IMG/VR virus record: IMGVR_UViG_2718218128_000006
Coordinates: 1 to 8,997 of that record
Length of the DNA: 8,997 nucleotides
DNA from: a virus
Lineage: Duplodnaviria; Heunggongvirae; Uroviricota; Caudoviricetes
Direction: 5' to 3' (one strand)
Under the pieces are notes generated by a model that was not told where the DNA came from, did no database searches, and saw only the letters and a list, made by a program, of their open reading frames with translations. Shown in pieces: positions 1 to 8,997 of this stretch (positions are counted from its first letter, which is position 1; every line of letters starts with the position of its first letter). The translations under genes were made by a program, and so were the position numbers.

Positions 1-29
1 GATAGCTCCTCCTGACAAAAACAGGAACG

Positions 30-440
30 ATGCCATTTGCGCGCTATTTCTGCATTTTCATAAACGTTGGTTTGGGAGAAGCGGCAAAACGGGATGTGGG
101 CACAGGGGAAAATCAGATACCGGACATGGTTTCATTTAGTGGGGTGAGGGATTTTTACGGAAAACAACTTTTGCCAGGAGGGTTGATACTCCAGTGGCTG
201 ACGATTCCATCAAGTGCAGCAGCCAAAGCTGTAACACTGAATAATGGTAATTATCAGCTGTCAGGTTATAAATGGCCCCAGTCATTTGGTGTCCTGTTTG
301 CTGTGTTTGCCACAAAAGTTTCTGGCTCGACTAACGAAGCATACGCAATCTCAGTTAATCGTCACTCTACCGATGTAATTGTCACCTGGAATGCCCGTAA
401 GGCTGATGATGTCCACATTTTAGGAATTGGGAAATTATGA
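30..440 (+). CDS. Alternative (currently silent) tail-fibre C-terminal cassette; genuine homology starts at about 67, and codons 30-66 are only open read-through upstream of the crossover site
   Basis: Encodes [21 protein letters not shown], identical to a stretch of the minus-strand fibre (1232..1888), then diverges. Promoterless in this orientation. Stop TGA 438-440 overlaps the next start (ATGA). Confidence 0.55.
55..80. other. Putative 26-bp invertase crossover site (hix/gix/pix-like), left
   Basis: TTTTCATAAACG-TT-GGTTTGGGAGAA: imperfect palindrome with an AAACG/GGTTT core around central TT; 21/26 identical to the reverse complement of the right site. Confidence 0.5.
67..128. repeat. 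Left copy of the 62-bp inverted repeat flanking the invertible segment
   Basis: Reverse complement of 1538..1599 with one mismatch (position 101, paired with 1565). Confidence 0.85.
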
Positions 441-856
441 AAATGAAATGGTCCCCATCTGTTCAGGGATTTTTCTCTGAAAACAACAGTGATATTCCCG
501 ATGATGCTTTCGATATTGAAGATGCTCTTTATTATGAACTTATGAATGGTCAGAGTACTGGGAAAATTATTATCAATAGCCCGGATAACTACCCTGTACT
601 TACTGAATATCCAGCGAAGACACAGGAACAGGAAATAGCTGAAGCGGAGGGAATGAAAAATATACTTATTGAACAAGCCAACGATTATATGAACAGTAAA
701 CAATGGCCTGGTAAAGCGGCTATTGGCCGGCTGAAAGGTGAGGAACTGGCGCAATATAATTTGTGGCTGGATTACCTGGACGCACTGGAACTGGTCGATA
801 CTTCCGGTGCGCCAGATATTGAATGGCCTACGCCGCCGGCAGTTCAGGCCAGCTAA
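437..856 (+). CDS. Tail fibre assembly protein (Tfa chaperone) of the alternative cassette
   Basis: 139 aa; C-terminal [16 protein letters not shown] matches the conserved Tfa C-terminal signature; ATG 437 is coupled to the upstream cassette stop. Confidence 0.7.
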
Positions 857-1223
857 TCTCAGGAGCCGTCGAAGTGTCGACGGCTTTTACTTCTTTTTTG
901 TAGTCCATCCAAGCAGATAGTTTTTCTTTATCTGTACTGCTGATATCACCAAGCATTAATTCCACTCGCCAGTCAGCTGTGACATTATCGGCATGAGCAA
1001 GTAACTGCATTCGCTGATTTTCCGCACGTGCGACATAATCAATCGCCGGGGATTTTAATACCGGTAAACCATTTTTATCTGACGTAATTAATTTACCCCC
1101 TTCCTGCTGTCCGGCAATTAATTCATTGTATAAGTCTGTACATATCTCAACAATGTCAGCAGGCATGTCACTGTTTATACCATCGAAGAAAAAACCATTA
1201 GTCGATTTTGAGAAATAAATCAT
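828..1223 (-). CDS. Tail fibre assembly protein (Tfa chaperone) of the currently expressed cassette
   Basis: ATG at 1223-1221 lies 8 nt after the fibre stop (TAG, 1234-1232); C-terminal [15 protein letters not shown] Tfa signature. The ORF-track start at 1253 is a TTG inside the fibre gene and was not used. Confidence 0.75.
   Translation of the reverse strand: MIYFSKSTNGFFFDGINSDMPADIVEICTDLYNELIAGQQEGGKLITSDKNGLPVLKSPAIDYVARAENQRMQLLAHADNVTADWRVELMLGDISSTDKEKLSAWMDYKKEVKAVDTSTAPEISWPELPAA
863..899 (+). terminator. Intrinsic terminator-like hairpin (9-bp perfect stem, 4-nt loop, T-rich tail) downstream of the alternative tfa, embedded in the opposite-strand tfa coding sequence
   Basis: AGCCGTCGA-AGTG-TCGACGGCT followed by TTTACTTCTTTTTTG. 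Confidence 0.5.
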
Positions 1224-1231
1224 AGATATAC

Positions 1232-1888
1232 CTATACACCGATTGCTACCCAAAAACAGGACCTTTCATATTTGACAATTTCTCCCTGAGATATACCGCC
1301 AACAATTATATAGAACTGTGATTTGCTGATATCAGAACAGTTCGCTATGCCCATTGCAGATATACCCGCCACCGACGTTGTATGTGGTACAGCCAACAGC
1401 GCAAGTGAACGATTTGGGAATGTTACCGGGTAAGTCACCGTATAGTTTGATGCTCCACTGACTATACCCCACTGAATAATCAGACCTGAAGGGAGTTTTT
1501 GAAAACCCGTTGATGAAAGTGAACTGGCAAACGCCGCCATGTCCGGTATCTGATTTTCCCCTGTCCCCACATCCCGTTTTGCCGCTTCTCCCAAACCAAG
1601 GTTTTCGAGAGCCGTTTTCACCGTGCCATCCGATTTGATATCACCAAACGGATTCTTGCGGCTTAACAGCAGGGCACGAAGCGCGGTAAGCAACTGGTCG
1701 TTTCGCCCCTTCTCCAGGCTGGCACCGGATGCCTCCACCACGCTGCAAAGCTCCTCCTGCAACATATCAAAGTAGTCATCATCCAGATTGGTAGCAGGTG
1801 TGCCAGTCTGGGGGTTACCACGGGTAAAACCGTTCTTACCCGCGCCGAACTTATCCTTCTGCGCGGTTTTCGTGTCTATACGATGCAT
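1232..1888 (-). CDS. Tail fibre protein (218 aa): constant N-terminal part (codons 1-96) fused to a variable C-terminal part inside the invertible segment
   Basis: ATG 1888-1886 with GGAG 8 nt upstream; N-terminus [20 protein letters not shown]...; residues 97-117 are encoded by the inverted repeat shared with the alternative cassette. Confidence 0.8.
1538..1599. repeat. Right copy of the 62-bp inverted repeat flanking the invertible segment
   Basis: 61/62 identity to the reverse complement of 67..128; encodes [21 protein letters not shown] in the expressed fibre. Confidence 0.85.
1586..1611. other. Putative 26-bp invertase crossover site (hix/gix/pix-like), right
   Basis: TTCTCCCAAACC-AA-GGTTTTCGAGAG; its 12-bp core AAACCAAGGTTT is the same as the hixL core as I recall it; lies inside the fibre coding sequence at the constant/variable boundary. 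Confidence 0.55.
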
Positions 1889-1891
1889 GGA

Positions 1892-2476
1892 TTACTCCGG
1901 ATATTTAAAAATTACGTAGGTATGCGACGGGCAGAGTTTGTTAAGCACACATTCGACAACGGTGTCGCCCCAGATACGCAGCGCGGAATCACAGGGATCG
2001 CCACATGTCATCCAGGTGGTGTTTGTGGCGGCTGGCATGTTGACCTGCCAGTAATACCGCCATTCCGGCGCATTCACCGCGTCAGTACAGGCCGATGAGC
2101 AGGTGAACGTGCGTTTGTCGTATCGCGTGATGGTAGCGTCTGGTCTGCCCAGGGCAGCAAGCTGTGCAAGATAAAAATTCTCGTTGATGCCGCCCGCCAG
2201 GTTAACCTTCGCATCCAGCCGTTGCTGACGCTGGCGAAGGGTCTGTGTCCCTGCGGGAATACATTCATCCGGCAGACCGCACAGACGCTCCCAGCGGTTT
2301 ATCAGTTCAGTGGTGGTGCGCGGATCCAGCTCCCGCATCAGGGCATCCGCACGCTGATGAACGCGGGTTAATGACGGTGCCGCACCGGCAATCGCCGGAT
2401 CGCTGGCTGACCACGCCGGACCGGGGGGCAACAGTGCCGACAACAGACGGATGTAATCATCGTTTGTCACGTCCAT
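1892..2476 (-). CDS. Phage tail protein, DUF2313 / YmfQ-like (Mu gp48-like), 194 aa
   Basis: Length and position between a baseplate J-like gene and the fibre gene, as in the e14 tail module; stop is 3 nt before the fibre start. Family assignment is from memory, not searched. Confidence 0.65.
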
Positions 2477-3525
2477 GAAATCGTCCCCAGTACCGCCAGT
2501 TCATTTTTTGCAATGGAGATATTGTCTGCCGGTGCAAGCAACTGATGGCTGTATTCCCCGTTCGCACCGGAAATCGCCTCACTGATACGCGATACCTTCA
2601 GTTCTCCCTGCGGATAACCATCACGCAGCAGGAGCGAACGCAACTCCGCGGTGATGGCAGCCCGTATTTCCGGTGTGTCCGGCGTCACGCGGATATGAAA
2701 ATCCACCGTATGTGCCACCGGCCTGAACACATACAAATCAGAGCCTGCCACCGGGGCCAGTGGCCCGATATGTTGTCTTGCCGCCGTTTCCGTTGATTCT
2801 TCCGGAATGGGATTAATCAGGTCACTGCTGGCAATCATCACACCGACAGTTCCCGTTCCCATCCAGTGACGGTATGTCCATGCGCGGGTAATGCCGGGCA
2901 CTTCTTTAGCCCAGACGACATAGTCCCCGTCAGCCCCACCCTGCGGCGTCCAGTAATACCGCTCAATGACGCGGGCGCGCCACGTTTCCAGCTCTTCAGT
3001 ATCAAATCCGCCTGTCAGGGTGTCAGCCACACCAGAAGACGGCAGACCATTCACCGGCGTGACCAGGATTAATGCCATACCGTCGTCAGCGTTACCGACC
3101 GCGCCTGCATTTGAGCAGGCGATCGGCACGCGCAGGACACCACCGGAGCTGGTTGCATCGGCAGTTGCCGTGTACTGAACCAGGTCATCGCGCTGAATAA
3201 CACTCCCGGCAGTCACCTTCAGGCCATCGCTGACACCTTCCCAGCGCATATACCCGCTGGCAGCCGTGGCCCCCTTGCGCGGACACCGTTTCATCGCAGC
3301 ATGTCGCGCCAGCCAGGACTCATCGCACAGGTCAGGCAGCATGTTCATTGCCAGATAATCGATGTACCCGTAAACCGTATGCAGCGCCGCCGCATACACC
3401 TTTGCCCGCACGTCTTCATCCATGCGCCGGAGCGTGTCGCTGACGTCCAGCCTGGCGAATAAATCGTTACGGAGCATACTGATATTTTCTGCCAGCGTCG
3501 GGCGCTGAAATTCACTGTCCGCCAT
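2467..3525 (-). CDS. Baseplate J-like protein (Mu gp47 / P2 gpJ family), 352 aa
   Basis: ATG 3525-3523; overlaps the downstream gene start by 10 nt; Gly/Asp-rich central region typical of baseplate J proteins; GC-rich codon usage unlike the accessory genes to its right. Confidence 0.7.
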
Positions 3526-3883
3526 GCGTTATCGCACTCCACAGATCATCAAAAGAAATCATTACCGGTCCGTCACGACGCCAGAGGGTGATACTGTTAC
3601 CCAGTTCATTAATCCCGGTGCGGCGGATATCCAGATCAATACGGGACACCACGCCGTCATCAATCATCCATTGCAGGCATTCGCGGATATACCCCCTTAC
3701 CGTCAGCACCAGCTGATTGGTCAGTTTGCTGCGCTGAAGCAGCCACAGTCGGGAGCCGTAACGGTCATTCTGTACCGCAGGCCAGGTAACCGCGGGAAAA
3801 TTTCCGAAGAAGACACCACCGAAACGCCGATGTATGTCAATCGCGGTGGTCGCCTGACTATTCTGCAGGAAGAACAGGGACAG
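3512..3883 (-). pseudogene. Remnant of an upstream baseplate gene (possibly GPW/gp25-like); 124-codon open frame with no ATG, and only one GTG (3709-3707) that would give a 65-aa product
   Basis: Frame is open from the in-frame TAA at 3886-3884 down to 3512 and overlaps the J-like start by 14 nt (operon-style), but the first 58 codons contain no canonical start codon. Confidence 0.35.
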
Positions 3884-3939
3884 TTACTGACTCTTGCCGG
3901 TGAACCTGACGGAAAACTCCGCGCAGCAGGTCGTTAATA

Positions 3940-3990
3940 TCGTTTTTAATTAACTGATTATTTATCTCATCACTGAATATCTTTATATAG
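3940..3990 (+). promoter_or_regulatory. Putative promoter region for the accessory/xis/int operon (AT-rich, sigma70-like hexamers)
   Basis: TTAACT (3950..3955), a 18-19 bp spacer, then TGAATAT / TATATA upstream of the GAGGA RBS; hexamer assignment is uncertain. Confidence 0.2.
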
Positions 3991-4002
3991 TGAGGACTTA
4001 TT

Positions 4003-4827
4003 ATGTCTCAGAACTTAGACGCAACCGCAATTAATCAAATCCATGCCCTTATTTCTGCTCAGGGTGTTAATGAAATTATCAGTAAGATTGGTGCCGATGC
4101 TGTGGCATTGCCTGAGAATTTCCGCATTCATGATCTGGAAAAATTTAATTTAAATCGCTTCCGTTTCCGTGGTGCGCTTTCCACTGCCAGCATCGATGAC
4201 TTTACCCGTTATTCTAAAGATCTTGCAGATGAAGGCACCCGCTGCTTTATCGATGCTGATAATATGCGTGCCGTCAGTGTGCTTAACCTGGGTACTATTG
4301 ATGAACCAGGTCACGCAGATAACACCGCCACACTCAAACTGAAAAAGACAGCACCGTTCTCTGCTCTGTTGTCTGTTAACGGCGAGCGTAACTCCCAGAA
4401 GTCACTAGCAGAATGGATTGAAGACTGGGCCGACTATCTTGTGGGCTTTGATGCTAATGGTGACGCTATTCAGGCAACAAAAGCGGCTGCGGCTGTCCGT
4501 AAAATCACGATTGAAGCAAACCAGACCGCTGATTTTGAAGATAATGACTTCAGCGGCAAACGCTCCCTGATGGAGTCTGTCGAAGCGAAGACCAAAGACA
4601 TTATGCCAGTGGCATTTGAATTTAAATGCGTTCCGTTTGAAGGTCTGAAAGAACGTCCGTTTAAATTACGCCTCAGTATTATCACTGGCGATCGTCCTGT
4701 ACTGGTTCTGCGCATTATTCAGCTGGAGGCGGTGCAGGAAGAAATGGCTAACGAATTTCGTGATCTGCTTGTTGAGAAATTCAAGGACAGCAAAGTAGAA
4801 ACCTTTATTGGTACTTTCACCGCCTGA
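4003..4827 (+). CDS. Prophage accessory protein, YfdQ-like (DUF2303), 274 aa
   Basis: ATG 4003 with GAGGA 6 nt upstream; first gene of a same-strand cluster whose lengths (274/178/120/101 aa) match my recollection of K-12 yfdQ-yfdR-yfdS-yfdT. Confidence 0.6.
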
Positions 4828-4839
4828 TTTCATTACTGC

Positions 4840-4861
4840 AAATGCCCCTGCGGGGGCATTT
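4840..4861 (+). terminator. Short hairpin just after the YfdQ-like stop (9-bp stem AAATGCCCC / GGGGCATTT, loop TGCG); weak terminator or attenuator candidate
   Basis: Perfect inverted repeat directly readable in the sequence; lacks a strong downstream U-tract. Confidence 0.25.
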
Positions 4862-4954
4862 ATGGAAACGTAATTTACTCAATAATCGCCGGATGGTGAG
4901 GGATTCTTTTTACCAGAATTCAGCGCGGTGCAGCGCATATACGTGGAGAACAAA

Positions 4955-5491
4955 ATGTCATTTATTAAAACTTTTTACGGGAAGCATTTTTATTATGACA
5001 GGATAAATAAAGACGACATCGATATTAACGATATCGCGGTTTCCCTTTCAAATATCTGTCGCTTTGCCGGTCATCTTTCGCACTTCTACAGCGTCGCCCA
5101 ACATGCGGTTCTTTGCAGCCAGCTGGTGCCGCAGGAATTTGCTTTTGAAGCGTTAATGCATGATGCAACAGAAGCGTATTGCCAGGACATTCCCGCACCA
5201 CTGAAACGCCTTCTTCCTGACTATAAACAAATGGAAGAAAAAATAGACGCCGTAATCCGTGAGAAATACGGGTTACCCCCAGTTATGAGTACGCCCGTGA
5301 AATATGCCGATCTCATCATGCTGGCAACCGAACGCCGCGATCTCGGGCTTGATGATGGCTCTTTCTGGCCTGTACTGGAAGGTATCCCGGCAACAGAGAT
5401 GTTCAACGTGATTCCACTGGCACCGGGCCATGCCTACGGGATGTTTATGGAACGCTTTAACGAGTTATCGGAGTTACGCAAATGCGCATGA
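4955..5491 (+). CDS. HD-domain phosphohydrolase, YfdR-like (5'-deoxynucleotidase family), 178 aa
   Basis: ATG 4955 with GGAGAA upstream (preferred over the GTG at 4928, which lacks an RBS); HD motifs in SVAQHAV and LMHDATEAY (HD codons at 5159..5164). Confidence 0.75.
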   Translation: MSFIKTFYGKHFYYDRINKDDIDINDIAVSLSNICRFAGHLSHFYSVAQHAVLCSQLVPQEFAFEALMHDATEAYCQDIPAPLKRLLPDYKQMEEKIDAVIREKYGLPPVMSTPVKYADLIMLATERRDLGLDDGSFWPVLEGIPATEMFNVIPLAPGHAYGMFMERFNELSELRKCA

Positions 5492-5844
5492 ATGTTTTCG
5501 AAATGGAAGGGTTTCTTCGTGGGAGATGTGTACCGCGAGATCTGAAAGTAAATGAAACAGATGCTGAATACCTAGTGCGTAAATTCGATGCGCTTGAAGC
5601 TAAATGTGCAGCACAGGAAAACAAAGTAATACCAGTGTCAACTGAACTGCCACCAGCAAATGAAAGTGTTTTGTTATTCGATGCTAACGGAGAAGGCTGG
5701 CTAATTGGCTGGCGTTCTCTCTGGTACACCTGGGGACAAAAAGAAACCGGAGAATGGCAGTGGACATTTCAGGTCGGGGACCTTGAAAACGTCAATATCA
5801 CTCACTGGGCAGTAATGCCAAAAGCACCGGAGGCTGGAGCATAA
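5482..5844 (+). CDS. DUF551-family prophage protein, YfdS-like, 120 aa
   Basis: ATG 5482 with GGAG 8 nt upstream; overlaps the preceding stop by 10 nt; C-terminal W-rich region ending ITHWAVMPKAP is typical of DUF551. Confidence 0.6.
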   Translation: MRMNVFEMEGFLRGRCVPRDLKVNETDAEYLVRKFDALEAKCAAQENKVIPVSTELPPANESVLLFDANGEGWLIGWRSLWYTWGQKETGEWQWTFQVGDLENVNITHWAVMPKAPEAGA

Positions 5845-6149
5845 TGACCACTTTTACCGACAAAGAACTGATTAAAGAAATTAAAGAGCGTATCAGCAGC
5901 CTTGACGTGCGAGACGATATTGAGCGCCGTGCTTATGAAATCGCACTCCTATCTCTGGAAGTAGAACCAGATGAACGCGAAGCTTATGAATTATTCATGG
6001 AAAAGCGTTTCGGTGACTTAGTAGATCGTCGGAGAGCAAAAAACGGCGATAACGAATACATGGCATGGGATATGACTCTCGGTTGGATCGTCTGGCAGCA
6101 ACGAGCTGGTATCCATTTTTCAACAATGTCACAGCAAGAGGTGAAATAA
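5844..6149 (+). CDS. Small prophage early protein, YfdT-like, 101 aa
   Basis: Start overlaps the upstream stop (TAATG at 5842-5846); GGAG 4 nt upstream; stop overlaps the xis start (TAATG at 6147-6151). Confidence 0.5.
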   Translation: MTTFTDKELIKEIKERISSLDVRDDIERRAYEIALLSLEVEPDEREAYELFMEKRFGDLVDRRRAKNGDNEYMAWDMTLGWIVWQQRAGIHFSTMSQQEVK

Positions 6150-6499
6150 TGGAGCCATACAGCCTCACACTCGATGAGGCCTGTCATTTTCTCAAGATAT
6201 CCAGACCGACTGCCATTAACTGGATACGCACAGGGCGTCTTCAGGCAACACGCAAAGATCCCACTAAGAATAAATCTCCTTACCTCACAACACGACAAGC
6301 CTGCATTGCGGCTCTTCAGTCTCCGCTGCATACTGTCCAGGTGAGCGCGGGTGATGGCATAACAGAGGAAAGAAAATGTCACTCTTCCGCAGAGGTGAAA
6401 TATGGTACGCCAGTTTCACATTGCCGAACGGTAAAAGATTTAAACAGTCTCTTGGAACAAAGGACAAAAGGCAGGCGACAGAACTCCATGACAAGCTAA
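6149..6499 (+). CDS. xis: Excisionase / recombination directionality factor (P22 Xis-like, 116 aa, HTH)
   Basis: ATG 6149 with AGAGGTGA upstream; N-terminal HTH-like [26 protein letters not shown]; lies immediately upstream of int and overlaps it out of frame. The ORF-track start at 6065 lacks an RBS and lies inside the upstream gene. Confidence 0.7.
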
Positions 6500-7539
6500 A
6501 GGCTGAAGCATGGCGGGTCAGCAAACTTGGTGAAATACCTGATATAACGTTCGAGGAAGCGTGTGTCAGGTGGCTTGAAGAGAAAGCACATAAAAAATCA
6601 CTGGACGATGACAAAAGCCGGATCGGATTCTGGCTTCAACATTTCGCAGGAATGCAACTAAGAGACATTACTGAATCAAAAATTTATTCAGCAATGCAGA
6701 AAATGACGAACCGGCGTCATGAGGAAAACTGGAAACTCAGGGCAGAAGCATGCAGAAAAAAAGGGAAACCTGTTCCAGAATACACGCCAAAACCAGCGTC
6801 CGTTGCAACGAAGGCTACGCATCTTTCATTTATAAAGGCCCTACTAAGAGCCGCAGAGCGTGAATGGAAAATGCTGGATAAGGCACCAATTATTAAAGTG
6901 CCCCAACCAAAGAATAAACGGATCCGCTGGCTGGAGCCCCATGAAGCACAAAGGCTGATTGATGAATGTCCGGAGCCATTAAAGTCTGTTGTTGAATTTG
7001 CACTGGCAACAGGCCTAAGACGCTCGAACATCATCAACCTTGAATGGCAACAAATAGATATGCAGCGCCGGGTGGCATGGATAAACCCGGAAGAGAGTAA
7101 ATCAAACCGCGCAATTGGCGTTGCGCTGAATGATACTGCATGTCGCGTATTGAAAAAACAAATCGGGAATCATCACCGTTGGGTATTTGTGTACAAGGAA
7201 AGCTGTACCAAACCAGACGGAACGAAAGCGCCAACAGTCAGGAAGATGCGGTATGACGCAAACACAGCCTGGAAAGCGGCGCTGAGACGGGCTGGTATTG
7301 ATGATTTCAGATTTCACGACTTGAGACACACTTGGGCAAGTTGGCTGGTTCAAGCCGGAGTCCCGTTGTCAGTGTTACAGGAAATGGGAGGCTGGGAGTC
7401 TATCGAAATGGTTCGTCGATATGCTCACCTTGCACCTAATCACCTTACCGAACACGCACGGCAAATAGACTCGATCCTAAACCCATCGGTCCCAAATTTG
7501 TCCCAGTCAAAAAATAAGGAAGGTACTAATGATGTGTAA
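6376..7539 (+). CDS. int: Site-specific tyrosine integrase (P22-type Int), 387 aa
   Basis: GAGGAA RBS; C-terminal catalytic signature [10 protein letters not shown] ... RRYAHL (H-x-x-R and Tyr); ends 14 nt from the tRNA-Thr 3' end. Resemblance to P22 Int is recalled, not searched. Confidence 0.9.
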
Positions 7540-7553
7540 CTTATTGATTTAAA

Positions 7554-7629
7554 TGGTGCCGATAATAGGAGTCGAACCTACGACCTTCGCATTACGAATG
7601 CGCTGCTCTACCAACTGAGCTATATCGGC
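7554..7629 (-). tRNA. thrW: tRNA-Thr, anticodon CGU, 76 nt including the encoded CCA
   Basis: Minus strand reads GCCGATATAGCTCAGTTGGTAGAGCAGCGCATTCGTAATGCGAAGGTCGTAGGTTCGACTCCTATTATCGGCACCA; folds as a cloverleaf by eye; anticodon CGT corresponds to 7594..7596. Confidence 0.9.
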
Positions 7630-7670
7630 CCTGAAAGGACATGTTCACGAACGTGAATCACGGTGGACAA

Positions 7671-7746
7671 GGTTAAAACTAACCGGGCGATGCGTCAATG
7701 GCCTTGTGAATCAAATGGCTACTTTTGCATCACCCGGTTTTATTTA
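7671..7746. terminator. Bidirectional terminator-like hairpin between thrW and proA (13-bp stem, one G-U pair, 33-nt loop)
   Basis: Arms 7681..7693 (AACCGGGCGATGC) and 7727..7739 (GCATCACCCGGTT); U-rich tails on both strands (TTTTATTT on plus, AGTTTTAA on minus). The loop is long for a classical terminator. Confidence 0.35.
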
Positions 7747-8997
7747 CGCACGAATGGTGTAATCACCAATGCCGATCCACTTGTAAGTGGTCAGTGCTTC
7801 CAGCCCCATTGGGCCACGCGCGTGGAGTTTTTGTGTGCTTACCGCCACTTCCGCACCCAGACCAAACTGGCCGCCGTCGGTAAAACGCGTAGAGGCGTTA
7901 ACGTAAACAGCGGACGAATCCACTTCGTTAACAAAACGCTGGGCGTTGCGCATATCGCGGGTCAGGATCGCATCGGAGTGTTGTGTGCCGTGTTCACGAA
8001 TATGGGCGATGGCATCGTCAAGATCGCTGACGATTTTAACGTTCAAATCTAATGACAGAAATTCATCGTCATACTCTTCGGCTTTAACCGCCACCACCTT
8101 CGCAGGGCCTGTCTGCAACTGCGCCAGCGCAGCTGCATCTGCGTGTAATGTCACGCCGCTTTCCGCCATTTGTTTGCTTAATGCGGGCAGGAAGCTATCG
8201 GCGATGTTTTTATTCACCAGCAACGTTTCTACCGTATTACATGTGCTCGGTCGCTGAGTTTTCGCGTTGACGATCACTTTTAATGCTTCAGCGATCTCTG
8301 CGCTTTCATCAACGTAAATATGGCATACGCCTATACCACCTGTGATCACCGGGATTGTCGACTGTTCGCGGCACAGTTTATGCAAACCAGCCCCGCCGCG
8401 CGGGATCAGCATGTCGATGTATTTATCCATACGCAGCATTTCACTGACCAGCGCACGGTCAGGATTATCAATCGCCTGCACGGCACCCGCCGGTAAGCCA
8501 CAGGATTTCAGGGCGTCCTGAATCACCGCCACCGTTGCCGCGTTAGTGCGACAGGTTTCTTTGCCACCACGCAGGATCACCGCATTACCGGTTTTCAGGC
8601 ACAGCGAAGCGACATCAACCGTCACGTTCGGGCGCGCTTCATAAATCACGCCAATCACCCCCAGCGGCACGCGACGACGCTCAAGACGCAGGCCGCTGTC
8701 CAGTACGCTGCCATCGATTACCTGCCCCACCGGATCGGCGAGGTTACACACCTGGCGCACATCATCGGCAATGCCTTTCAGCCGTGCGGGCGTCAGTGCC
8801 AGACGGTCAAGCATCGCTTCGCCAAGGCCATTGGCACGCGCGTCAGCAACATCCTGGGCGTTAGCGTTGAGGATGATTTCGCTTTGTGCTTCCAGTTCAT
8901 CGGCGATTTTTTCCAGCACGCGATTTTTTTCGCGGCTGGAGAGTTGCGCTAATTTATACGAGGCTTGCTTCGCGGCAATGCCCATTTGTTCCAGCAT
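7744..8997 (-). CDS. proA: Gamma-glutamyl phosphate reductase (glutamate-5-semialdehyde dehydrogenase), full length, 417 aa
   Basis: ATG at the window edge (8997-8995); protein [20 protein letters not shown]... matches enterobacterial ProA as I recall it; the window ends exactly at its start, so proB should follow. Confidence 0.95.

Follow-up and report, generated by a model that had tools for sequence, protein, structure and literature searches.

The locus analysed here, a stretch of 8,997 nt (the window), raises the question of whether four accessory genes lying just upstream of xis and int form a host-manipulation module that selection has retained in an otherwise lost prophage, as the initial annotation proposed. 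We asked what these genes are, in what kind of element they reside, and which part of the arrangement is conserved.

Identity and arrangement of the four genes

All four plus-strand open reading frames were recovered at the proposed positions, with xis and int directly downstream (Table 1). The gene junctions were likewise exact: yfdR and yfdS overlap by 10 nt (5482-5491), TAATG junctions are located at 5842-5846 and 6147-6151, and int overlaps xis by 124 nt. The description of a tightly coupled four-gene cluster, however, holds only for part of the run. The genes yfdR-yfdS-yfdT-xis do overlap, but yfdQ and yfdR are set apart by a non-coding spacer of 127 nt (4828-4954) with three hairpins, so that coupling by overlap is limited to genes two to four and xis. 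The start of yfdR is the ATG at 4955, which a conserved GGAG precedes, and not the GTG at 4928 chosen by the open reading frame lister. The genes are organized in two units, the truncated yfdP together with yfdQ, ending in a conserved stem-loop, and then the translationally coupled yfdR-yfdS-yfdT-xis-int; the use of the term 'yfdPQ operon' in the literature (PMC9181523) was counted in favour of this organisation.

Table 1. Features of the window, with coordinates, strand and the evidence for each assignment
Feature	Position	Strand	Basis
Deletion junction, 5-bp microhomology	3787..3791	.	SfV alignment blocks end at 3791 and start at 3787
yfdP 3' remnant, last ~50 codons	3787..3937	+	Homology to yfdP of K-12, SfV, SfIV and E. 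coli A2 from 3787
yfdQ, DUF2303 protein, 274 aa	4003..4827	+	Pfam PF10065, K-12 YfdQ identity, PDB 9o7m
Hairpin H1, AAATGCCCC-TGCG-GGGGCATTT, 12 nt 3' of the yfdQ stop codon	4840..4861	+	
Hairpin H2, TCGCC-GGAT-GGTGA, in the spacer	4886..4899	+	Compensatory changes, conserved in 22 species
Hairpin H3, GCGC-GGTGCA-GCGC, just 5' of the yfdR ribosome-binding site	4923..4936	+	Conserved, compensatory changes
yfdR, HD-domain 5'-deoxynucleotidase-type protein, 178 aa	4955..5491	+	K-12 YfdR identity, PHROG 318, PDB 2gz4
yfdS, 120 aa, DUF551 domain C-terminal	5482..5844	+	K-12 YfdS identity, Pfam, PHROG 583
yfdT, 101 aa, TAATG junction on each side	5844..6149	+	K-12 YfdT identity, PHROG 660
xis, P22-type excisionase, 116 aa	6149..6499	+	PHROG 2907 'excisionase', HTH_17
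int, tyrosine integrase, 387 aa	6376..7539	+	Pfam Phage_integrase E 3.2e-48; same coordinates as SfV int
tRNA-Thr(CGT), thrW-type attachment site	7554..7629	-	ARAGORN, Rfam tRNA
proA, chromosomal flank	7744..8997	-	RefSeq annotation of the collinear region of E. coli A2

The lengths and order of the genes match those of yfdQ-yfdR-yfdS-yfdT of the K-12 prophage KplE1, and homology searches, which might have found them unrelated, identified true orthologues with 96-99% amino acid identity (YfdQ 99.3%, YfdR 97.2%, YfdS 95.9%, YfdT 96.1%) and 96.3% nucleotide identity over 3787-6205. The four genes are thus almost certainly yfdQRST within a phage remnant. The K-12 locus (CPS-53/KplE1, b2360-b2363) shares with the window the protein lengths of 274, 178, 120 and 101 aa, the 10-nt and 1-nt overlaps, and the 127-nt yfdQ-yfdR spacer. 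In K-12, however, yfdP is intact, the yfdO/yfdP promoter region is present, and torI and then attR at argW come after the module, with intS at the opposite prophage end, whereas in the window a truncated yfdP is preceded by Mu-like baseplate DNA and the module is followed by a P22-type xis-int pair at thrW. Also collinear with the window, over 3787-7599, are SfV (orf32-orf28, 99.1% identity), SfIV (gp34-gp30, 99.7%) and an intact thrW prophage of E. coli A2 (99.5%). These share with it xis, int and the integration site by proA, the phage map order being cI, orf33, yfdP, Q, R, S, T, xis, int, attP, but they are complete genomes, whereas the window is without repressor, cro, replication, lysis, head and most tail genes. 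Besides SfV and SfIV, yfdQRST is found in further active phages, namely Kati and Stx2c phages. The observation that opened this work is therefore correct but ordinary, as it concerns already known and published genes.

Profile searches agreed with these assignments. YfdQ matched PF10065 with E 2e-92 (309.7 bits against a gathering threshold of 26.6, residues 7-272 on profile 2-269), YfdS matched PHROG 583 (E 1.1e-82) and passed the DUF551 threshold marginally (PF04448, residues 50-117, 22.2 vs 22.0 bits), and YfdT matched PHROG 660 (E 6.8e-31) and contains no Pfam domain.

A young prophage remnant at thrW

Judged by its sequence, the window is the remnant of an SfV/SfIV-type temperate prophage integrated at tRNA-Thr beside proA, and the four genes belong to the part of such a phage's early-left operon that is transcribed last. 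Xis aligned with PHROG 2907 over its entire length (E 1.1e-50, residues 1-116 on profile 2-117). As expected for a P22-type excisionase/integrase pair at thrW, a tRNA-Thr gene is adjacent and the junction between phage and host lies within it, phage homology stopping at 7599, where the alignment to SfV and SfIV ends.

At the other end, the deletion junction fuses a Mu gp46-like baseplate gene on the minus strand, recognized by a GP46 Pfam match on the truncated reading frame 3512-3709(-), to the middle of yfdP. An intact yfdP would begin near 3575. In the mechanically listed reading frame at 3524-3937, antisense baseplate sequence is joined to the yfdP remnant, and the match to PHROG 17027/204 covers only residues 83-137 of its 137 aa. 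Instead of the intact yfdP (PF27127) expected upstream of yfdQ, only the last ~50 codons are left; the deletion took two thirds of this gene, the partner invariably linked to yfdQ. About 27 kb are absent relative to SfV, the repressor and promoter region among them, while baseplate and tail-fibre genes at 1-3787 have been kept, and the earlier statement that the prophage had lost almost everything else is borne out only in part. None of 5426 complete E. coli genomes spanned the junction, and an exact 45-mer across it was absent from IMG/VR. A consensus scan of the plus strand between 3500 and 7700 returned no sigma-70-like promoter site, which is weak evidence of absence.

Retention of the four genes in so reduced an element had been taken as a sign of selection. 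This reading did not survive the comparison: identity of the remnant to SfIV amounts to 99.7%, and as the junction turned up neither in another E. coli genome nor in IMG/VR, retention is uninformative on selection. Comparison with K-12 gave dN/dS values of 0.05-0.11 for yfdQRST (0.05 for yfdQ), and these low values record constraint while two phage lineages diverged, not constraint within the remnant. We nevertheless considered that the module is domesticated, the host retaining yfdQRST for survival under H2O2, MMS or hydroxyurea stress through damped initiation. Such a stress benefit would explain why gutted prophages at different attachment sites, argW (K-12) and thrW (this window), have both kept the module. 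K-12 yfdQ and yfdS deletions were indeed reported as sensitive to H2O2 or MMS, and multicopy yfdQRST increases hydroxyurea resistance (PMC4776307); in addition, the host regulator SrsR binds upstream of K-12 yfdP (PMC9181523), and all four reading frames are intact with the low dN/dS given above. However, the remnant is too young for a retention test, the region bound by SrsR in K-12 is deleted here together with most of yfdP, position alone spares genes beside int and att from internal deletions, and evolution in active phages equally predicts low dN/dS. We therefore hold domestication to be improbable. Most likely, the window carries the module as passive cargo, an illegitimate deletion having taken away the repressor gene together with the promoter region and most of yfdP, and no sigma-70-like promoter having been recognized upstream. 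As a young and probably silent remnant, this particular copy matters very little as stated.

A role in defence or exclusion, raised earlier as speculation, found no backing either. The place of the genes in an accessory prophage region and the precedent of nucleotide-depleting defence enzymes would suit an anti-phage or superinfection-exclusion cassette expressed from the prophage, but PADLOC-DB 2.0 contained no family matching any of the six proteins at E <= 0.01. Moreover, the genes lie in a lytic early-left operon 3' of the repressor gene and do not form a lysogen-expressed moron with its own promoter, consistent with the promoter scan. We regard such a cassette as very improbable.

The conserved core and its structured spacer

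Of 5426 complete E. coli genomes, 3873 (~70%) contain the module at least in part, and lambdoid phages have been described as often carrying it in their early-left operons (PMC12315714). Because a scan of viral contigs with YfdQ returned matches of 99-100% identity only, that survey bears on mosaicism within E. coli, and the more distant context was taken from genome contigs. Across 80 species, yfdP lies directly 5' of yfdQ in 79/79 loci (as in 80/80 viral contigs) and yfdR follows in 52 of 75, while yfdS and yfdT occur in two of 75 each. Co-occurrence, which was to be checked for all four genes, is hence conserved for yfdP-yfdQ(-yfdR) across 80 species, whereas yfdS and yfdT are variable cargo. 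In a Photobacterium prophage without yfdR, a DnaQ-like exonuclease fills the slot after yfdP-yfdQ. The 'yfdQRST cluster' of the literature is thus a grouping centred on K-12, and what is conserved at its core is yfdP-yfdQ(-yfdR).

As early phage proteins, YfdP and YfdQ occur very widely, and neither has a recognisable fold. The structure of a YfdQ homologue has become available (PDB 9o7m, 'YfdQ Protein', E 1.2e-44), the entry containing 36 chains. Fold searches with AlphaFold2 models of both proteins returned nothing, and macro-domain matches of YfdP in a PDB sequence search were insignificant (E 0.2). We found no literature on 9o7m or on DUF2303 function; the sole lead is a DUF2303 protein of Burkholderia phage JC1 reported to be virion-associated. 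The many chains of the YfdQ homologue suggest a large oligomer, as annealing proteins form, and SfV, SfIV and the E. coli A2 prophage carry no recognisable recombinase between cI and int. One might therefore suspect an unrecognised recombination module standing in for Red or Erf in phages without a Rec module. This is hardly credible, as phage ArgO145 carries this cluster alongside a complete Rec module and a recombination role has been judged unlikely (PMC12315714), and the YfdQ and YfdP models bear no likeness to Rad52, RecT, Erf or Gam folds.

Between yfdQ and yfdR, the spacer forms a conserved structured RNA outside any Rfam family. Of 80 species loci, 79 have a strong hairpin after the yfdQ stop codon, irrespective of whether yfdR comes next, and 90% fold at <= -15 kcal/mol, compared with 21% of control windows. 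In H1, the 9-bp stem with 5 G-C pairs is conserved, compensatory changes are observed, and G-U pairs are workable in the plus-strand RNA only. An intrinsic terminator was defined as a G+C-rich stem followed by at least 5 T in 8; the T run after H1 is only TTTAT and the hairpin was not called by the terminator scan. H1 may be described as a terminator-like or 3'-end-stabilising stem-loop with a short U run. Assignment of the spacer to the Rfam family STnc100 (RF02076) was rejected, as the score reached 18.8 bits against a gathering threshold of 47, none of 11 related loci matched, and the reported genomic context of STnc100 differs from that of the spacer.

We tentatively speculate, while rating it as rather unlikely in its full form, that yfdP-yfdQ, the structured RNA spacer and yfdR, rather than yfdQRST, constitute a conserved and widespread early-gene cassette of temperate phages of Gammaproteobacteria, in which a large YfdQ homo-oligomer would act with YfdP, its small obligate partner, in host takeover, the hairpins would set the yfdQ:yfdR expression ratio, and inhibition of DnaA by YfdR with YfdS or YfdT would be an Escherichia-specific add-on. 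YfdS and YfdT, on which the replication phenotype depends, are missing from almost every relative outside Escherichia, so that yfdP-yfdQ-yfdR may originally have served something other than DnaA inhibition.

YfdR, DnaA and the function of the module

The HD-phosphohydrolase motifs noticed in the second gene were borne out: H50, H69-D70 and D119 of YfdR align with conserved residues of PDB 2gz4 (Atu1052, E 4.9e-14) and supply the metal-binding H...HD...D pattern. YfdR matched PHROG 318, 'deoxyribonucleoside 5' monophosphate phosphatase', with E 3.5e-109, but fell below the YfbR-like cut-offs (Pfam PF12917, 25.2 vs 25.9 bits; NCBIfam NF003009, 20.5 vs 122 bits). It shares H...HD...D with E. coli YfbR (PF12917), to which its similarity is otherwise weak, and is best placed, on these profiles, in a separate phage-borne HD subfamily, PHROG 318.

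That overexpression of this cluster inhibits replication initiation and that YfdR binds DnaA, as noted earlier, was confirmed in a published report (Noguchi & Katayama 2016, PMC4776307). K-12 YfdR binds DnaA domain I at Phe46, competing with DiaA and DnaB, an activity not known for YfbR, and K-12 alleles of yfdQ and yfdR together with yfdS or yfdT in multicopy inhibit initiation at oriC. YfdR in the window differs by five amino acids from the K-12 allele for which DnaA binding was published. On the other hand, inhibition is known for multicopy expression only, chromosomal deletion of yfdQRST had no replication phenotype, and the authors allow that the multicopy phenotype may be an overexpression artefact (PMC4776307). 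It is conceivable that YfdR mainly dephosphorylates dNMPs during phage development, as proposed for T5 Dmp, with DnaA binding being a side effect of overexpression and YfdP-YfdQ acting in some other process. The phosphatase label of its HD-family matches, the RefSeq name '5'-deoxynucleotidase', the exonuclease in the yfdR slot of Photobacterium, and the far wider linkage of yfdR than of yfdS and yfdT to yfdP-yfdQ all point in this direction. Yet nucleotide affinities of YfdR are reportedly much below those of YfbR (PMC4776307 citing Zimmerman 2008), and binding of purified YfdR to DnaA is specific, via Phe46 (PMC4776307). We consider a mainly nucleotide-directed role unlikely.

Our preferred explanation, to which we assign a probability of roughly 0.6, is that yfdQRST is an early-left phage module whose products would act on DnaA as their K-12 counterparts do, and which is carried as passive cargo in the remnant. 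The maps of SfV, SfIV and the A2 prophage of E. coli show that in an intact phage the genes are transcribed 3' of the repressor gene after induction or infection, and arrest of host chromosome initiation is the best-documented activity attributable to them. By the 96-99% identity to K-12, YfdR, a putative weak 5'-deoxynucleotidase, would block DnaA, with YfdQ and either YfdS or YfdT needed in vivo. That DnaA inhibition is the natural phage function is a narrower claim, about which we are somewhat doubtful. Similar tactics are employed by SirA and Dps, the former from Bacillus subtilis, which bind DnaA domain I and lower initiation like YfdR but lack homology to it; YfdR and SirA use an equivalent Phe46/Phe49 surface, and lambda P acts on DnaA domain III (PMC4776307). 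A possible parallel is the lambda exo-xis region (orf60a, orf63, orf61, ea22, ea8.5), which sits at the same point of the map, immediately 5' of xis-int in the early-left operon, and which the literature has likewise connected with inhibited host DNA replication or with cell-cycle effects (PMC10834534). Some Ea22 variants carry DUF551 (PMC10834534), but YfdS and YfdT showed no similarity to lambda Ea22 (BLASTP E 8.9 and 6.1), and the analogy is one of position only. What reaches beyond this remnant is the conserved yfdP-yfdQ(-yfdR) core, the RNA of its spacer and the observations on YfdP and YfdQ, which could guide work on host takeover by SfV/ST64B-type phages.

Identity and arrangement of the yfdQRST genes

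The ORF list and the sequence confirmed the four plus-strand genes at 4003-6149, and in the best-supported reading they constitute the known yfdQRST module of SfV/SfIV-type phages. Direct comparison with K-12 MG1655 revealed identical lengths for the four products, amino-acid identities of 99.3, 97.2, 95.9, and 96.1% for YfdQ, YfdR, YfdS, and YfdT, respectively, and dN/dS values of 0.05-0.11 across the genes; the lengths and identities thus bear out the initial annotation, which had likened the genes to the K-12 cluster. The profile searches that it had proposed returned a full-length Pfam DUF2303 match for YfdQ (2e-92), a PHROG match to the HD-type 'deoxyribonucleoside 5' monophosphate phosphatase' for YfdR (3.5e-109), with Pfam HD/YfbR-like matches below threshold, and a marginal pass of the DUF551 cut-off for YfdS; no Pfam family matched YfdT. 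The HD motifs noticed in YfdR were recovered against the HD-domain structure 2gz4 (4.9e-14), where the H, HD, and D residues align. In an identical stretch of E. coli strain A2, RefSeq labels the genes yfdQ, yfdR, 'phage protein', yfdT, HTH protein, and integrase, followed by tRNA-Thr, proA, and proB.

Coordinates of the module, its spacer hairpins and the downstream genes
Feature	Positions	Strand	Product	Basis or location
yfdQ (gene 1)	4003-4827	+	274 aa	ORF list and sequence
H1 hairpin	4840-4861			yfdQ-yfdR spacer
H2 hairpin	4886-4899			yfdQ-yfdR spacer
H3 hairpin	4923-4936			yfdQ-yfdR spacer
yfdR (gene 2)	4955-5491	+	178 aa	ORF list and sequence
yfdS (gene 3)	5482-5844	+	120 aa	ORF list and sequence
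yfdT (gene 4)	5844-6149	+	101 aa	ORF list and sequence
xis	6149-6499		116 aa	after yfdT
int	6376-7539		387 aa	after xis
tRNA-Thr(CGT)	7554-7629			before proA

The junctions are exactly as first described, with a 10-nt overlap at 5482-5491 and TAATG at 5842-5846 and 6147-6151. The tight coupling claimed for the cluster applies to yfdR, yfdS, yfdT, and xis, which overlap, but not to yfdQ, because a 127-nt non-coding spacer separates its end at 4827 from the yfdR start (ATG at 4955, conserved GGAG ahead). The PHROG excisionase profile fits the 116-aa protein starting at 6149, and with the starts adopted here xis shares 124 nt with int. Both starts are ambiguous, as RefSeq and the SfV record place that of the excisionase (6065-6499) upstream, within yfdT, and RefSeq places that of the integrase at 6421.

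The report on replication to which the initial annotation refers exists (Noguchi & Katayama, 2016; PMC4776307): in multicopy, yfdQ and yfdR together with yfdS or yfdT suppress hda-185 and inhibit initiation. The effect does not require yfdP, deletion of the cluster gives no initiation phenotype, and the authors themselves allow for an overexpression artefact. The documented activity of the module is interference with DnaA-dependent initiation, and this would plausibly aid host take-over early in lytic growth.

An internally deleted prophage and the fate of its module

Over 3787-7599 the window shares 99.7% identity with Shigella phage SfIV and 99.1% with SfV, and over 3787-8997 it shares 99.5% with an intact lambdoid prophage that occupies the same site in E. 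coli A2; beyond the tRNA gene the window ends in minus-strand proA. Both phages share the order cI, at least one small ORF, yfdP (SfV orf32), yfdQ, yfdR, yfdS, yfdT, xis, int, and attP, and the module therefore forms the distal end of the early-left operon, at the map position of the lambda exo-xis region. The likeness is positional only, and no sequence similarity of YfdS or YfdT to lambda Ea22 was found. The exo-xis region has also been linked to inhibition of host replication (PMC10834534).

Upstream of 3787, the minus strand carries Mu-like Baseplate_J, Gp48, Gp53-like, and two tail-fibre assembly genes, which match SfV orf18-orf21. The two SfV alignment blocks meet with a 5-bp overlap at 3787-3791, and the window is therefore a prophage that has lost ~27 kb internally, from the gp46-like gene to mid-yfdP, at a 5-bp microhomology. 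The lost DNA held cI, cro, the genes for replication, lysis, and heads, and two thirds of yfdP. None of 5426 complete E. coli genomes spans the junction, IMG/VR has no exact match to a 45-mer across it, and the event looks private and recent. A 137-aa ORF (3524-3937, plus strand) crosses the junction: ~85 codons at its 5' end are antisense to the Mu gp46-like baseplate gene, and the final ~50 encode the YfdP C-terminus; it is a chance chimera produced by the deletion and represents no gene family.

Within 1-1900, a 68-nt inverted repeat (62-129 and 1537-1604, 97% complementary) flanks 1407 nt that hold convergent tail-fibre assembly genes at 437-856 (plus) and 828-1253 (minus). Its arms encode the same 20-residue peptide in the opposed tail-fibre ORFs 30-440 (plus) and 1232-1888 (minus). 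The segment looks like an invertible host-range segment of the Mu G or P1 C type, and no invertase gene lies within the window.

The module in the window is most likely passive cargo, because its upstream regulatory region is lost, yfdP is truncated, and no sigma-70-like promoter was detected on the plus strand between 3500 and 7700. Its retention had been taken to suggest selection. This argument fails, since the remnant is too young and a place next to int and att is in itself enough for genes to survive an internal deletion; the low dN/dS is a mark of constraint acting in circulating phages, e.g. SfV, SfIV, Kati, and Stx2c phages. Support for the suggested defence or exclusion role was not found either. 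The observation of the initial annotation largely stands and its identification is right, but its ideas on selection and defence lack support. The feature was known before and is widespread: part of 3900-6400, a query that also includes xis and the beginning of int, is matched in 3873 of the 5426 genomes, and in 1590 the match covers at least 80% of the query.

The yfdP-yfdQ core and its relatives

Scanning one genome per species gave 80 loci with YfdQ relatives (41-99% identity), ranging from Escherichia to Marinobacter, Hahella, and Photobacterium. Neighbours were scored by tblastn in these and in 80 IMG/VR contigs whose YfdQ is 99-100% identical. A YfdP homologue lies directly upstream of YfdQ in 79/79 species loci and 80/80 contigs, and YfdR follows downstream in 52/75 (48 adjacent) and 67/67. 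Full-length YfdS and YfdT each occur near YfdQ in 2 of 75 species loci, both E. coli, and in 45 and 27 of 67 contigs, respectively. Across the species loci, the co-occurrence proposed as a check on the cluster thus holds for yfdP-yfdQ and mostly for yfdR, but not for yfdS and yfdT; the four-gene grouping is therefore K-12-centred, and the conserved core consists of yfdP and yfdQ, in most cases joined by yfdR. These counts agree with the remark that a yfdP-yfdQ-'yfbR' trio is common in lambdoid early-left operons (LLS, ST64B, ArgO145), for which a recombination module was judged unlikely and no function was assigned (PMC12315714). In the window the core is broken by the truncation of yfdP; the surviving stretch, from a 10-residue segment onward, overlaps the 34 residues that are best conserved in YfdP.

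A PDB sequence search with YfdQ retrieved 9o7m, 'YfdQ Protein', whose 36 chains of a 274-aa homologue (E 1.2e-44) suggest a large homo-oligomer. No paper on 9o7m was found in the library searched, and neither fold library returned it; fold searches with AlphaFold2 models of YfdQ (pLDDT 74) and YfdP (pLDDT 70) gave nothing informative. In Burkholderia phage JC1, a DUF2303 protein is reported to be virion-associated. YfdP relatives are tagged PF27127 in the protein database, and K-12 YfdP was unmatched in the local Pfam-A copy, which lacks that family.

In a prophage of Photobacterium ganghwense (L158, 4686-9172), a distant yfdP-yfdQ pair has a cI-like S24 repressor directly on one side and an integrase on the other, and the yfdR slot, held by the HD protein in enterobacterial phages, is taken by a DnaQ-like 3'-5' exonuclease (PF16473). 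In Pseudocitrobacter faecalis (L116, 2134-2335, minus strand), a C4 antisense RNA, its a1/b1 target, and isrK score above the Rfam threshold ~3.7 kb upstream of yfdP-yfdQ-yfdR in that prophage, which points to a P1/P7-type immunity element in the same early region.

A structured RNA between yfdQ and yfdR

A strong hairpin, H1 in the window, follows the yfdQ stop in 79/80 species loci, with or without yfdR next, and 90% fold at <= -15 kcal/mol compared with 21% of control windows. The spacer (4828-4954 in the window) measures 125-140 nt in Enterobacteriaceae and Erwiniaceae and is as conserved as coding sequence (70% mean column identity). Among 22 species tested for covariation, 96.6% of cells pair, compared with 39-56% when partners are slid, and compensatory changes occur in 8 pairs, compared with 0-3 after sliding; the observed values were reached in none of 500 shuffles. 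U-G pairs in nine sequences would be A-C mismatches on the opposite strand, and the structure therefore belongs to the sense RNA. Compensatory changes in the three-hairpin spacer were seen over about 20 genera.

H1 may act as a leaky terminator that antitermination overrides, or may serve to stabilise the 3' end; it lacks a full U tract, and the terminator scan made no call. A transcript end at H1 fits the K-12 usage 'yfdPQ operon' (PMC9181523). No Rfam family covers the spacer; STnc100 was rejected, as its 18.8 bits fall short of the 47-bit threshold, 11 related loci gave no such hit, and its reported genomic context differs. Two leads stand out: the conserved RNA structure of this spacer and the near-universal pairing of yfdP with yfdQ.
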